From Emiliania huxleyi CCMP1516 (taxonomy: Eukaryota): a stretch of 64,000 nt of DNA. Where the stretch lies: positions 186,001 through 250,000 of the forward strand of contig NW_005202303.1 of NCBI RefSeq assembly GCF_000372725.1, given 5' to 3'. This document shows positions 39,401 to 47,578 of this stretch, one piece after another (within the stretch, counting starts at the first letter, position 1; each line of letters starts with the position of its first letter). A program made the translations under genes and the position numbers. The notes beneath the pieces were generated by a model, which worked only from the letters and a program-made list of their open reading frames with translations, ran no database searches and was not told where the DNA came from.

Positions 39401-40489
39401 GGACGGTTGCAGCGCGACGGGAAGAGCGGCGTCCTGCAGCTGGCGCAGCTCGAGTGCGTACGCCTCTGGGATGAGGTCGGTGCGGATCGAGAGCGCCTGA
39501 GGGGGGTGAGCTGAGGATGGGGCCAAGCTAGGGCAGTCTAGGAGGGACGGTGCAGGAAGCGTCCAGGAGGAGTGTCTCGGAAGAGTCGGAGAGGCGCCTG
39601 CGCGAGCTTGATGAAGGTAAGTAATTAATCAAGGTAATTATTAATCAAGGAGAGGCGCCTGCGCGAGCTTGATGAAGGTAAATAATTAATCAAGGTAATT
39701 ATTAATCAATTCAGAGGCGCCTGCGCGAGCTTGATGAAGGTAAATAATTAATGAAGGTAATTATTAATCAATTCAGAGGCGCCTGCGCGAGCTTGATGAA
39801 GGTAAATAATTAATGAAGGTAATTATTAATCAATTCAGAGGCGCCTGCGCGAGCTTGATGAAGGTAGGCCCGAGCTGGGTCGCCAGCGCGAGCGCCTCCC
39901 GCCCGCGGTCGGCCTCGTTCGGCCACGGCTCCCCCTCCGGCGAGCCCGCCCGCTTGTACGCCGCGAAGTCGAGCGCGAGCTTGGCGTTGAAGCCGAACGT
40001 CAGCCAGCCGAGCCGAAGGAGGCGCGCCGCAACCTTGGGCAGCCGGGCGCGGTAGAAGCGGTTCGCCGCGGCCGGGTCGTAGCCCTTCGCGTTCGCCGGG
40101 TACGGCGCGCCCAGCGGAGCCTCGAGGTAGTCGCGCACCGCGGTGGCCACGACGACGAGCCCGACGCCCGCCGCCGCGATCGCGGGATTGCTGAGCAGCG
40201 CCGGATTGCTGAGCAGGCCGCCGATGCCGCCCAGCGTCGCCGCGCCGCTCGCAGCGGAGGCCTCGGCGAGCGCAGGGTCCAGGCTGCCGCCCAGCGCGGC
40301 AGCACCGCTCACAGTGGATGCCTCTACGAGGGCGGGATCTAGCGCCGAGCGAGCGGGCGGGTGCCGCACGACGTGCGGGAGGCTGCCGACATGGCGAGTC
40401 GTCCCTAATTGTGCCTGCTGAGTTGACCGCGGCGCGGGAGCAAATGTCGACAGCAGAGGCGTCACTAGTGCCGCGAAGGCCGCCACCAT
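36410..40489 (-). CDS. ABC1K/UbiB atypical kinase, probably plastid-targeted, multi-exon
   Basis: LGPTFIKLAQ|ALSIRTDLIP...LQD, AAASIGQVY, VAVKVQRP, VLVTEWVDG, LHCDPHPGN, ILDWGM, PPYILYVARAFSTLEGIG. N-terminal signal/transit-like peptide. Confidence 0.92.
39591..39866. repeat. 61-62 bp tandem repeat (5 copies) containing the exon end and splice donor of the ABC1K first intron
   Basis: gaggcgcctgcgcgagcttgatgaaggta begins at 39591, 39652, 39714, 39776 and 39838, with AT-rich spacers. Confidence 0.92.
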
Positions 40490-42422: not shown

Positions 42423-43586
42423 TCAACACGTTGGCCCGCCGGCGTCCGGGATCGCCCCGGCCCTCACCAGCACGAGCGCGAAGAGGCTTCCCAGCAGCGC
42501 CCCCACCTGGTTCGCAAGCCCGACGTAGCCCGTCCCTCCCGCGTTGGAGGCGGCAACAAAGGCGGACGTGACGACCAGGCCATGGAGGACCGAGGAGAGG
42601 CACACCAAGGGCAGCGAGACTGCGGTTGGTGGCGGAGCGGCGCGAGCGGCGGCGGCGACGGCACCAGCCAGGATGGCGGCCTGCGTGGCGTTTGCAACGA
42701 CATAGCCCTGGAGCGGGTGGTAGGAGGCGGCGAGCCGGCCGAGGACAGAGCTCCCGTTCCACAGGGCTGTCAGCCAAAAGAGGGCGTCCGCATCGCACAC
42801 GCTTGGGTTCAAATAGGGCAGCAGGCTCGGCATCGCAAAGTTGAGCACGCAAGTTACGGATACGCCAACCAGCGGATATTCGCCCGCCGATCTGAGGCCG
42901 CGGCCGTGTCGCGCCGCCCATCCGCGAAGGGTGCCCTTGTGCTCCTCTGTCTCGAGTCGGGGAGCCTCGGAGCACTTTGCCGTCGCCGCGTTGGCTCGCA
43001 GCCACGCCTGTCCGAGCAGGCCCGCCAACTGGACGACGCCCACACCAATAAAGTACTCGCGCGAGCCAAATCGCTCGCCGCCGTCCGCAGCATACGCGAG
43101 TATCTGCGCGGCGAGGCCGCAGGCGCCAACGCCAGCCGACAGGGCGGCGACGCTCACGCGGCCGCGAAAGGTGGCGGCATACGGAAAGAAACAGACCATC
43201 GCAGTCGTCCCGACGAGCCCAGCTGCCGCTGCCCCGATGAGCAGGCCGAGCGACGTCGAGGCGGTTTGAAGACGCGAGCCCACGAGGCAGAGCCAAGCGG
43301 CGGTAGCGAGACCGAGCCCGAGAAGCGAGCAGGTGAGATGCTCGCTATTCGCATCAACCCATCCTTCGGGGGCGAGGAGGACCAGCGCTGCTGGAGCGAC
43401 GTTGCAGACCTGCACAGCGACATCGATCGATGAGAAGAGCGCATAGCCCTCGGGGGCGCTCCGAATCTCCCACACCGCAGACGCAAAGACACCACTCACA
43501 AGCGTCCATGAGGAGGCGCCGACAAGGAAGAGCGCGACACCATCTGGCCAGGCGCCGTGCTGTTGTGCCTCGTGGGAAGAGCGCAT
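42423..43586 (-). CDS. SLC52 (riboflavin transporter)-like multi-pass membrane protein, intronless
   Basis: LFLVGASSWTLVSGVF...APEGYALFS...QVCNVAP resembles SLC52 G.GSW..NG...LPEGW.LPS...GN. Also VCFFPY and about 10-11 hydrophobic segments. Confidence 0.75.
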   Translation of the reverse strand: MRSSHEAQQHGAWPDGVALFLVGASSWTLVSGVFASAVWEIRSAPEGYALFSSIDVAVQVCNVAPAALVLLAPEGWVDANSEHLTCSLLGLGLATAAWLCLVGSRLQTASTSLGLLIGAAAAGLVGTTAMVCFFPYAATFRGRVSVAALSAGVGACGLAAQILAYAADGGERFGSREYFIGVGVVQLAGLLGQAWLRANAATAKCSEAPRLETEEHKGTLRGWAARHGRGLRSAGEYPLVGVSVTCVLNFAMPSLLPYLNPSVCDADALFWLTALWNGSSVLGRLAASYHPLQGYVVANATQAAILAGAVAAAARAAPPPTAVSLPLVCLSSVLHGLVVTSAFVAASNAGGTGYVGLANQVGALLGSLFALVLVRAGAIPDAGGPTC

Positions 43587-43905
43587 GCATGGAACGACAA
43601 GCGCACAAGGGACGAACGCAGCAGTGAGAATTTTACAATCTCAACACTGGCCACAGAAAATTTACGACGAAGCGCCTCGCACAAACTGGGCACGGGACTG
43701 CGCGCACTGGCACGTAAAAAACGCATGGGCTTTCAAGTACCAGGGGGTAAGGTACGGTACACTTCTCAACAGTGGTGGGCGCAAGGGTCCGACCAGCGAC
43801 CACACACACTCACGACGGACACAACTCTCGCTGTCACAGACCCTTTGGGCAAAAGCTCTAGGGCAAAAGCCTCCCATACGCACGTCTCATCTCCGGGGGG
43901 CGCGC

Positions 43906-45191
43906 TCAGGTCGCGGTCGTCACGATCGAGCAGGGCGAGGTGGATCGAGCTGCAGCCTTCATGCCCAGCTTCTGCGACGCATCGAACGGCTTGGGCTTGC
44001 GCGCCGCGGCGCGGCGTAGCATCGTGTGGAAGAGCTGCGGGTGCTGCAGCTCGGGCCGGTCCGTCTTGGAGGCCATGCCAATCATCGCCGACTCGCGCGC
44101 GAAGGAGCAGACGGGCTGGCACTCGAGCATGTACACCTCGCCTTCGGGGTCAACCCGGAAGTCGAAGATGGAGAAGTCGCGGCAGCGGAGCGCCTTGTGG
44201 GCGCGCCGGGCCGCCTCGCCGAGCTTGGCGGTGAGCGCGTCGTCGAGCGGCGCGGGGCAGACGGAGCGGCGGAAGTCGGGCGCCTCCTCGCGGTTGGTGG
44301 CGAAGAACTTGTCGGCGTCGGGCAGCCCCTCCTCCGTCACAGAGATCTTGTCGGTGGACGTGCGCATCGGGTGCTCGGGCGTGAGCAGGTACTCGGTGGC
44401 GGGCAGCAGGATTGACGGCTCGCCCGCCTCGTCCTCGACCACCGCAACGCGGATCTCGCGGCCGAGCGGGATGAACTTCTCGCAGACCACCTTGCTGTCA
44501 AACTTGAACGCCTCCACGAGCGACGCGCGCAGCTCGCCCGCCTCCTCCACCTTGGAGATGCCCATCGAGTTATCCTCGCAGCACGGCTTGAGGACGAATG
44601 GGTACCCGACCGTCGGCGTCTGGACGCGGCGGGTAGGGCGCGGAAATGAGAGGCAGCAGCGGAGTGAGCGCGAGGGCAACTGGAATATGCGGGAGAGCAA
44701 CAGCGGGAGGGCGGCAGCGGTGAGGTCAGCGCCTGGTCGGGCGAATGGAGGAGCTCGCCAGGCGGCACCGGTACGCCCGCGGCGGCGGCCACGGCCTTCG
44801 TCTGCTGCTTGTCGGTGATCAGGGCCATGCATTCGGCCGTGTTGCCAACCAGCGGCACGCCGATCAGATCAAAGATCGAGCGATACTGAGTGTATCCGGG
44901 CCAGCAGAACATATGCGGGACGCAGACGTCGAAGTCGGAGGCGGCGAGCGTGCTCAGCGCTGCTCCGTGCTCGAGCTTGGGCGCATCGTCGATTGTCCCC
45001 TGGTCGAGGTCGGGCACGATGCACCATGCGCCTCCGGGCAGGACGACGGCAAAGGTGAACTCGAACGAGGCCTTGGTCGCCTCGTCGGAGGAGCCAGCGA
45101 GCATTTGACGGGCGTAATGGACGGAGATCATGCTGTAGTACTGCGAGACGGGCGAGCCAGCAACGTGGAGCACGCGGAGGCTGGCTACCAT
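43906..45191 (-). CDS. mysD: MysD-type D-Ala-D-Ala-ligase-like ATP-grasp enzyme (MAA biosynthesis); 2 exons, 45191-44733 and 44619-43906
   Basis: LRVLHVAGS...YARQ...PGGAW...DVCVPHMFCWPGYTQYRSIFDLIGVPLVGNT..MAL..DK..TKAVAAAAGVPVP, KPCCEDNSMG, EKFIPLGREIR, AHKALRCRDFSIFDFRVDPEG..YMLE...CSFA. The PxMFCxPGxTxYR motif is MysD-like rather than bacterial Ddl. GC-AG intron at 44732-44620. Confidence 0.9.
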
Positions 45192-45640
45192 GGCTCGGCA
45201 GTGTGGTTGGGCGAAGATGAGCTGCGAAGATGATGACACGTTCGCGTCGGGTTCTCGGCAATTCATTGAAGTTTCTAGACACAATTCTAGACACGAGGCA
45301 AGGGACAGTTTTTCAGTGTATGTGTGTGCTCTCTCTCTCTCTCAGTGTACTTTTAGCTTACTGGTGTAGCTGTTACGTTTTGTTTGGATTCCTATCTATC
45401 GCAAAAATCTGGAGAAGGTTTTCTAAAATCTGTGAATGAATCTTTCAGTCTGTCTGACCAGTGATGGCCTGCCATGTCTGCGGTGGCCCGGGGGGGACTT
45501 TGGTTGGAAATGCCGTGGTTGGAACTTGGAGCACTTGGAGTGCCGTCTGTGGAATTCTCAAGAGTTTTGTGCAACATTCACCCGAAAACTCCGTGACTTC
45601 ATCACGAAAGCACGGGACTTTGCAAAGCAAGAGCTCCGCC
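45192..45640. promoter_or_regulatory. Putative bidirectional promoter between mysD and mysC
   Basis: 449 bp, relatively AT-rich spacer between the divergent ATGs. Confidence 0.55.
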
Positions 45641-47578
45641 ATGGGCTACGCCACCCCGATTGACATCAGCGACGAGGACATGCTCTACTCTGTCCTCATC
45701 AGGCCGATCTCGCCTAAGACGGAGTACGCAAAGCAGAGGCCGGCTACGCCTACAGAGCTCAGCACCTCCTCCGACGACATCTCCAGCGACAACGAGTCCA
45801 TTTGCGCGTACAAGCTGCGCCCGGTTACGCCCATCTTGACGGAGACGAGCACCTCTGACGTTTACTCCTCCGACACCGACACCGAGTTCGCCTCAGAGAG
45901 GACGCCAGAGGCTGACCCAGCGGAGCTCGAGCCGGCCGAGTGCGCTGTTGCACCGAGGACGTGGCGGCAGGCGATCGAGCCGCGCCTCTGGTCGGTCGCG
46001 ACGCTGGTCGGCATCTTTGCCTGCGCGCCCCTCGTTGTCGCCTGCTGGGCCGTGCTCGTGGCCCTCGGGAGAACCTTTGGCGAGCGGCTTGCGGCCATCG
46101 GCGGCAAGCGGTGCGACGAGGTGAAGCCCAACGGCAAGGTTGCCATCGTCTCGGGAGGCAAGATGACCAAGGCCTACGTGATTGCGCGGCAGCTCAAGGC
46201 GCAGGGGTGCCGCGTCGTCCTCCTTGAGACGTCCAAGTATTGGATGGTCGCCTCGCGCGCGAGCAACTGCGTCGACCGCTTTGCGATGGTGCCGCTGCCG
46301 GAGAAGGACCTCGCCGGCTACCTCGACGCGGTGCGCGCGCTCGCCATCGAGGAGAAGGCCGACCTCTTCATTCCCGTCACCTCGCCCGCGGCGTCCGAGT
46401 ACGAGGCGCAGGTTGCGCCCGTCCTGCCCGCTGGTTGCGTCTCGTGGTCGCTCGACCTGGAAACCGTGCGCGACCTGGACGACAAGACCGCCTTCTGCAG
46501 CAGCGCGGAGAGGCTCGGACTGCCCGCGCCGCGCTCGCACCGCGTGGCGTCCGACGAGGAGGCGCACGCCTTCAACGAGAAGCTCCTCGCGGAGGCGGCT
46601 ACGGCCACGGCTGGCGCGGAGACGCGCTACATCCTCAAGAGCCTCGCCTACGACTCTATGCACCGGCTCGACCTCTTCACGCTGCCCTGCGCGCCCGACG
46701 TGCTCGACGCCTACCTCGCCAAGCTCCACACCGACGGCGCGGCAATCACGCAGGCCAGGCCGCGGCGCCACTCCCGCCGCCAGCCCTGAGCCGCGCGCCT
46801 CACGCCGCCCCCCTCTCCTCCCGCCGCTCGCAGGAGAACCCGTGGATCATCCAGACCTTTGTGGTCGGCGACGAGTACTCGACGTGTGCGCTCGTCAAGG
46901 AGGGCCGCCTGCTCGCCTTCACCGACAACCGCGCGTGCCTCTCCTGCTTCAACTACACGCCCGCACGCAGCGAGGCGCTGCGCTCGTGGGTGCGCGACTT
47001 TTGCGCCGCGCGGCGGCTGAGCGGGGTTGTCTGCATCGACTTCATCGTCGACGCGCAGAGCGGCACGCCGTACGCGATCGAGTGCAACCCGCGCTTCTCG
47101 TCGAACGTGCTCAACCTGTTTTGGAACCCCCCTTTTGGGGGGGCCCTCTTCCGCCCCCACAAGGGGGTTGCCCGGGGGGACCCCCCCCGGGCCCAGGGGG
47201 AAAGGTTTTTCCTTTTTGGGGGGGGGGGGGGCCCCCCCTCCCGGGAAACGGGAAGGGAGGGCCGTTTTTCCCCAAAGCCCCCGCCCCTGGGGAAAGGGGG
47301 GAGTTGAGGCCTTTTTTTGGCCCCCCCCCCCCCCCCCCCCCCTGCAGATCTGGGCGCTGCTCTCCAAGAGGCCCTTCTCCTTGCGATCCGCGGGCGCGCT
47401 CCTGTCGACGGTGGCGACGAAGAAGGACGCCTACTTTGACGTGGCGGATCCGCTGCCCTTCATCGCGCACCTCTTTGTGCACATCCCCGCGCTCCTCGCG
47501 CGCAACTTGAGCACCGGCAACAAGTGGGCTAAGATCGACCCGTGCATTGGAAAGTTGACGGAGGAGAATGGCGACTAG
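45641..47578 (+). CDS. mysC: MysC-type ATP-grasp ligase (mycosporine-glycine synthase), multi-exon
   Basis: IVSGGKMTKAYVIAR...G.RVVLLETSKYW...SNCVDRF..VPLP...YLDAV...EKADLFIPVTSPAASEYE, LDDKTAF, YILKSLAYDSMHRLDLFTLP, ENPWIIQ, IECNPR and C-terminal KIDPCIGKLTEENGD all match cyanobacterial MysC motifs. GC-AG intron at 46754-46833. Low-quality segment at ~47120-47345. Confidence 0.93.

Follow-up and report, generated by a model that had tools for sequence, protein, structure and literature searches.

A divergent mysC-like and mysD-like gene pair in the haptophyte Emiliania huxleyi: probable ligases of mycosporine-like amino acid biosynthesis

Haptophytes are major mycosporine-like amino acid (MAA) holders within the surface plankton. 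The locus considered here, positions 43906-47578 of a 64,000-nucleotide stretch of Emiliania huxleyi CCMP1516 (contig NW_005202303.1, positions 186,001 to 250,000; hereafter the window), holds two back-to-back spliced genes, one mysD-like on the minus strand and one mysC-like on the plus strand, and raises the question of whether they encode ligases of MAA biosynthesis. A preliminary description of this DNA had proposed a head-to-head pair 449 bp apart, which the start codons at 45191 (minus strand, mysD) and 45641 (plus strand, mysC) bear out. All nine sequence motifs that it named are present in the locus on the strands given, and the three introns of the pair (one in mysD, two in mysC) are indeed of the GC-AG type. 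The mysD-like gene corresponds to EMIHUDRAFT_428706 (XP_005793302.1), with a product of 390 aa, and the mysC-like gene to EMIHUDRAFT_52960 (XP_005793303.1, a partial record), with a full protein of 577 aa (P0167, counted from its Met); the two accessions are consecutive.

Regarding family identity, BLASTP comparison with the mys cluster of Nostoc linckia NIES-25 (L080), the MysD of which has been characterised in vitro (PMC10666671), gives 37% identity for MysD (E 3e-68) and 36% for MysC (E 3e-87), while the best D-Ala-D-Ala ligase (Ddl) in the PDB matches E. huxleyi MysD with E 6e-22. Two MysD trees were computed by quick searches with Shimodaira-Hasegawa-like approximate likelihood ratio (SH-aLRT) supports and no bootstrap, one of 65 rows (LG+G4) and one of 55 rows (mixture model, more cyanobacteria). 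In both, the split between MysD and Ddl receives a support of 100, and the E. huxleyi protein falls on the MysD side; the text of Fig S4 of PMC6001144 points the same way. The MysC tree has no non-MysC outgroup. Within 6 kb of the 79 best bacterial MysC loci (best 80 of 581 retained for the alignment, 79 used) mysA is present in 72, mysB in 71 and mysD in 68. Of 134 columns that at least 90% of 67 bacterial MysDs conserve, E. huxleyi MysD keeps 85, including K128, K164, D169-N170-S171, E200, E208, D306, R308 and E319, and MysC keeps 106 of the 173 columns conserved in the 79 bacterial MysCs. The AlphaFold model of MysD (mean predicted local distance difference test score, pLDDT, 88.6) adopts a Ddl-like ATP-grasp fold whose top Foldseek matches are Ddl (E 2e-22). 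An ATP-grasp fold is also predicted for the MysC core; its hydrophobic helix resembles that of Nostoc MysC and is preceded by about 100 acidic residues modelled with low confidence, and among solved structures no MysC relative is detected by sequence. All NCBIfam Ddl models score far under their cut-off (best 77.5 against 243 bits), and MysD shows neither the N-terminal Pfam domain of Ddl nor its E-x-N motif. Pfam and NCBIfam return just Ddl-type and generic ATP-grasp matches, the uninformative annotation that had been foreseen. The identification of the pair as MysC and MysD in the preliminary description, for which it had suggested BLAST and phylogeny against the Nostoc proteins and Ddl, is thus upheld by the similarity to Nostoc, by the placement of MysD apart from Ddl and by the mysA-linked relatives of MysC; the same applies to its view that the two genes are separately encoded in a haptophyte host, being unfused genes of E. 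huxleyi. Among the viral contigs searched, no relatives of mysC or mysD turn up.

Because of the Nostoc identity, the grouping of MysD, the mysA-linked relatives of MysC and the shinorine reported from this species, the pair probably performs the last two steps of MAA biosynthesis, forming mycosporine-glycine and then a disubstituted MAA. In the cyanobacterial pathway, MysC joins glycine to 4-deoxygadusol and MysD adds the second amino acid (PMC10666671). By homology, E. huxleyi MysC would activate 4-deoxygadusol with ATP and attach glycine to give mycosporine-glycine, which MysD would in turn activate and couple to a second amino acid, serine being the likeliest, yielding shinorine with traces of porphyra-334 as putative sunscreen compounds. 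The 4-deoxygadusol itself would be supplied by mysA/mysB-type genes presumed to lie elsewhere in the genome. Serine as the main substrate of MysD fits the MAAs reported for E. huxleyi strains other than CCMP1516, since shinorine dominates there and palythine and porphyra-334 occur in trace amounts (PMC3083659).

In the MysD clade that includes E. huxleyi and Calcidiscus, the specificity (omega) loop is longer by a fixed insertion of 10 residues. Loop length is measurable in 65 of 88 eukaryote-type and 51 of 67 bacterial rows (not measurable in 23 and 16, respectively), where the labels "eukaryote" and "prymnesiophyte" of the other rows are extrapolated from the few rows with organism names. 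The loop segment spans 49 residues in 46 rows and 51 in one, compared with 37-40 in the 18 other eukaryote-type rows and 38-41 in the 51 bacterial ones. According to PMC11983340, the specificity residues of N. linckia MysD, F247 and S255, lie on the omega loop, and by alignment the insertion falls in the segment that holds them. The canonical loop pattern with two specificity residues (L/F-x7-A/S), which predicts the product and does not define the family, is not seen in E. huxleyi MysD, in whose longer loop the two residues have no mappable counterparts. Furthermore, the clade has the motif ECQPVC: CQPVC occurs in 57 of the 83 rows matched, and in none of 61 bacterial rows, 54 of which read EAGLYC at this site. 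A range of products altered by the lengthened loop is possible, and the clade-specific loop is well suited for testing the current specificity rule for MysD, on which sunscreen bioengineering draws.

The genes of the first half of the pathway were sought in several ways. In the 64-kb window the best tblastn match of MysA has E 0.025 and MysB has none, in agreement with the absence of mysA and mysB noted before, and in the relative L002 (6.8 kb) neither gene is linked to mysC. A red-algal DDGS (mysA) query recognises no haptophyte mysA among the 120 of 1578 matches listed, most of them without names. Further DDGS searches (150 listed representatives, 10 clusters looked up, and the Atlas, which gave only bacterial clusters) likewise recognise no haptophyte DDGS; the named members of the 10 clusters are Oxyrrhis, Picozoa, Chlorarachnion and Oithona. 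A screen by amino-acid composition for haptophyte-like DDGS matches is uninformative. Since these searches cover the top ranks only and mostly nameless proteins, they are no evidence of absence. Three stand-alone eukaryote-type DDGS proteins of 623-679 aa with no methyltransferase domain (P0355, P0382, P0388) are candidates for haptophyte mysA. Many similar marine DDGS-O-methyltransferase fusions also appear among the DDGS matches listed. One cluster of such fusions (P0308) includes a protein labelled Oithona nana, a copepod, which could reflect copepod-encoded MAA genes or prey contamination.

Several observations weigh against an assignment of the pair to the last two MAA steps. Bacterially conserved columns are altered in 49 of 134 positions in MysD and 67 of 173 in MysC, and the published two-residue rule that separates shinorine from porphyra-334 formation is inapplicable because the loop is 10 residues longer. 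Two relatives (L001 and L034) have another gene upstream of mysD. MAA levels are described as low in E. huxleyi cultures (PMC2866486, PMC3083659). No mysA or mysB is tied to E. huxleyi in the window or in the incomplete, indirect searches, and the O-methyltransferase tree of PMC6001144 does not include the species, which is a hint at most.

The alternative that survives best, though itself unlikely, is a variant chemistry, in which the proteins are MAA-type ligases and the longer omega loop and altered motif favour other amino acids, or in which the core is non-canonical (gadusol, dehydroquinate-synthase-derived, or imported) because canonical mysA/mysB would be missing. The loop length, the position of the insertion over the specificity residues and the CQPVC motif all speak in its favour, as does the lack of a recognised haptophyte mysA among the matches listed. 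Clusters without mysA and MAAs with a gadusol core have precedents (PMC10666671, PMC7826186), and a glycine-valine MAA has been tentatively identified in Phaeocystis. However, the MAAs reported from E. huxleyi are ordinary, with shinorine dominant, and the absence of mysA is not established by top-ranked matches that are mostly nameless. In its strongest form, in which a prymnesiophyte MysD subfamily would attach different or bulkier amino acids through its longer loop and the pair would use a core made without canonical mysA/mysB, this chemistry is improbable; if true, abundant ocean haptophytes would have a distinct route to UV-screening compounds. It is very unlikely that the MAA-derived pair has some other role (osmolyte or antioxidant) or is left over from a pathway whose first half has been lost. 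E. huxleyi has little MAA and is reported to be sensitive to UV, first-half genes were not found in the window or among the matches listed, and expression in Symbiodinium is described as similar in light and dark (PMC6001144), all of which is compatible with it, but both reading frames are open, with a GC content at third codon positions (GC3) of 0.84-0.95, protein identity across the clade is 71-83%, and the genes are transcribed in seawater samples, all of which argues against decay. Finally, a generic Ddl with an unrelated ATP-grasp enzyme, or bacterial contamination, is hardly credible and already largely refuted: the Pfam and NCBIfam matches are limited to Ddl-type and generic ATP-grasp, but all NCBIfam matches to Ddl lie far below cut-off, the N-terminal Pfam domain of Ddl is missing, trees and gene context point to MysC/MysD, the introns are spliceosomal, GC is host-like and the neighbours are eukaryotic.

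The gene models underlying the MAA-ligase assignment differ from the public ones (Table 1). The database protein P0001 (390 aa) agrees with the 113-nt mysD splice, whereas the public mysD model (398 aa) uses other splice sites and is mis-spliced. The RNA contigs that skip the mysD intron and mysC intron 1 come from three studies; as the runs were picked for containing this stretch, they are evidence for transcription and splicing and not for levels. The public EMIHUDRAFT_52960 model is partial, mis-spliced and corrupted by a base-calling artefact. Across about 47115-47347, a tract that the preliminary description did not remark on, homopolymer runs average about 3.0, more than in any other of the 274 bins, the median for the window being 1.31. 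From 47119 on, all eight runs compared disagree with the window, and the RNA contigs have 58 letters where the window has 182 (124 fewer). The environmental contig L008 comes from the same species, runs co-linear across the tract with ordinary sequence and shows the GC-AG intron 2. Against the full-length transcript protein P0167, the three window exons match at 367 of 371, 112 of 130 and 76 of 76 residues, the deficit of exon 2 lying within the garbled part (18 of 36, compared with 94 of 94 ahead of it). A genuine insertion or frameshift is rejected, since the run contigs and L008 contradict the window. With correct models, the pair provides two expressible enzymes and markers for metatranscriptomes.

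Table 1. Features of the mysD-mysC locus in window coordinates.
Feature	Position	Strand	Evidence
mysD-like exon 2: Ddl-type ATP-grasp domain, 10-residue omega-loop insertion, stop codon	43906..44619	-	PF07478 E 6.9e-24
mysD intron, 113 nt, GC-AG	44620..44732	-	skipped in 5/6 RNA runs
mysD-like exon 1, 153 codons	44733..45191	-	RNA contigs
Divergent intergenic region, 449 bp, GC 0.49, candidate shared promoter	45192..45640	.	promoter role inferred
mysC-like exon 1: ~100-aa acidic Ser/Thr-rich extension, predicted disordered; hydrophobic helix; N-terminal ATP-grasp part	45641..46753	+	NF005315 E 7e-33
mysC intron 1, 80 nt, GC-AG	46754..46833	+	skipped in 6/6 RNA runs
mysC exon 2, last 36 codons garbled in assembly	46834..47223	+	PF02655 E 1.5e-7
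Base-calling artefact, homopolymer-rich, non-biological	47115..47347	.	homopolymer runs, RNA contigs, L008
mysC intron 2, GC-AG, ~118-124 nt, within garbled tract	~47224..47347	+	L008 sequence; RNA contigs
mysC exon 3: conserved C-terminal motif and stop	47348..47578	+	sequence

The intergenic region might act as a shared promoter, a role for which the case is about evenly balanced; the co-regulation put forward in the preliminary description is no more than putative, as contig data cannot rank expression. RNA contigs end at about 45201-45234 on the mysD side and begin at about 45638-45645 on the mysC side. In run X14 a mysC contig is listed and none for mysD, and in X15 the contig depths differ between the genes; neither observation carries weight here, since contigs give no ranking of genes and gaps prove nothing. 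The survey of gene order covers 34 metagenome loci; in four close relatives among them (L008, L002, L001 and L034) the sequence reaches 600 bp or more upstream of mysD. The same order is seen in L008, which is E. huxleyi itself. L002, which is intronless (80% MysD and 59% MysC identity), has the two genes head-to-head, about 101 bp apart and between different flanking genes; no intergenic word longer than 8 bases is common to it and the E. huxleyi pair. Consequently, the order is retained in one of the three other informative loci (L002, not L001 or L034), and the linkage of mysC and mysD is real but loose. Other layouts occur further afield: L018-L022 have the red-algal one, in which a mysAB and a mysCD fusion diverge. 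A eukaryote-type contig that is more distant (L012:169-2426) carries mysD and then mysC in tandem, a third arrangement, and three low-GC eukaryote-type contigs (L025, L028, L032) carry mysD followed by an intron-split mysA-mysB fusion, with no mysC in the stretch covered.

Concerning origin, MysDs related to that of E. huxleyi are found in Calcidiscus, Pavlova, Chromera, Bigelowiella, Durusdinium, Picozoa and a red alga. The E. huxleyi protein groups with Calcidiscus and many further rows (support 98-100) and next with Pavlova (90, mixture-model tree). No eukaryotic MysD row is nested in a bacterial clade, and monophyly of the eukaryotic MysDs receives 97 SH-aLRT under LG+G4 and no support in the mixture-model tree, where cyanobacteria are more numerous. 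Given that no row is nested in this way and that monophyly is supported in one tree, mysD is old in haptophytes and sits among old eukaryotic MysDs; because support for monophyly differs between the trees, no donor is claimed, and none can be named. The position of the mysD intron is common to L034, a 76% identical relative, and the intron therefore predates E. huxleyi. Of the bacterial or endosymbiotic origin put forward in the preliminary description, a bacterial origin of the family is plausible, but no donor is identifiable. MysC of E. huxleyi is 36% identical to Nostoc MysC and 27% to the red-algal fused MysC; the latter value disfavours fission of a red-algal mysC-mysD fusion, though the branch of the red-algal row is long. 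In a metagenome-assembled genome labelled uncultured Akkermansia sp., the mys cluster (L069) sits on a long branch together with Prochloron-type genes and may be mis-binned.

Compared with the mysABCD(H) cluster of N. linckia NIES-25, the E. huxleyi locus shares orthologous MysC and MysD, the conserved ATP-grasp residues and the hydrophobic N-terminal helix of MysC. It differs in comprising two genes only, in being divergent rather than an operon and in having introns, as well as in the N-terminal extension of about 100 aa of MysC and, in MysD, in the longer loop and in ECQPVC in place of EAGLYC. The nuclear MAA cluster described for Symbiodinium tridacnidorum and Durusdinium trenchii (PMC6001144, PMC9298759) includes DDGS-O-methyltransferase, whereas none is linked in E. 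huxleyi, and Durusdinium MysD is without the loop insertion. Like E. huxleyi, red algae have divergent MAA genes in an algal nucleus and a MysD domain in the eukaryotic group; unlike it, they oppose fused mysA-mysB and mysC-mysD (Brawley 2017, as cited in PMC9298759) rather than unfused mysC and mysD.

The novelty attached to the locus in the preliminary description proves overstated, as both accessions already appear in the MAA trees of 2018 and many algal lineages have related MysDs. In their supplement, Shoguchi et al. 2018 (PMC6001144) place XP_005793303.1 in the MAA ATP-grasp tree and XP_005793302.1 in a D-Ala-D-Ala-ligase clade with bacteria and Symbiodinium. Separately encoded eukaryotic MAA genes are described for dinoflagellates (PMC9298759) and a green-algal neighbourhood (PMC7826186). 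The pathway is a known one, in a species known for MAAs, and its proteins are already recognised one by one; that E. huxleyi has mysC and mysD would not surprise a specialist. Searches of the open-access literature found no main text that names these accessions and no paper that treats haptophyte MAA biosynthetic genes as a locus, and the head-to-head pair and the loop seem undescribed there; the supplement of PMC4426668 gives no matches. What is added here is the corrected gene models, the partial conservation of the divergent order and the clade-specific specificity loop.

As for the surroundings, a single-frame gene for an SLC52 (riboflavin-transporter-like) membrane protein lies directly downstream of mysD (42423-43640, minus strand). 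RNA contigs from both X14 and X15 cover it, and in L002 it is not next to mysD. Among the neighbours scanned (56 of 117 candidate frames and the SLC52-like gene), no MAA connection is apparent. The pair is flanked by segments of very high DNA-run contig depth (43637-43827 and 47839-48000), which point to short high-copy repeats, and about 39590-39800 is occupied by a tandem repeat whose period is about 62 bp, visible from the staggered matches of L007 to itself.

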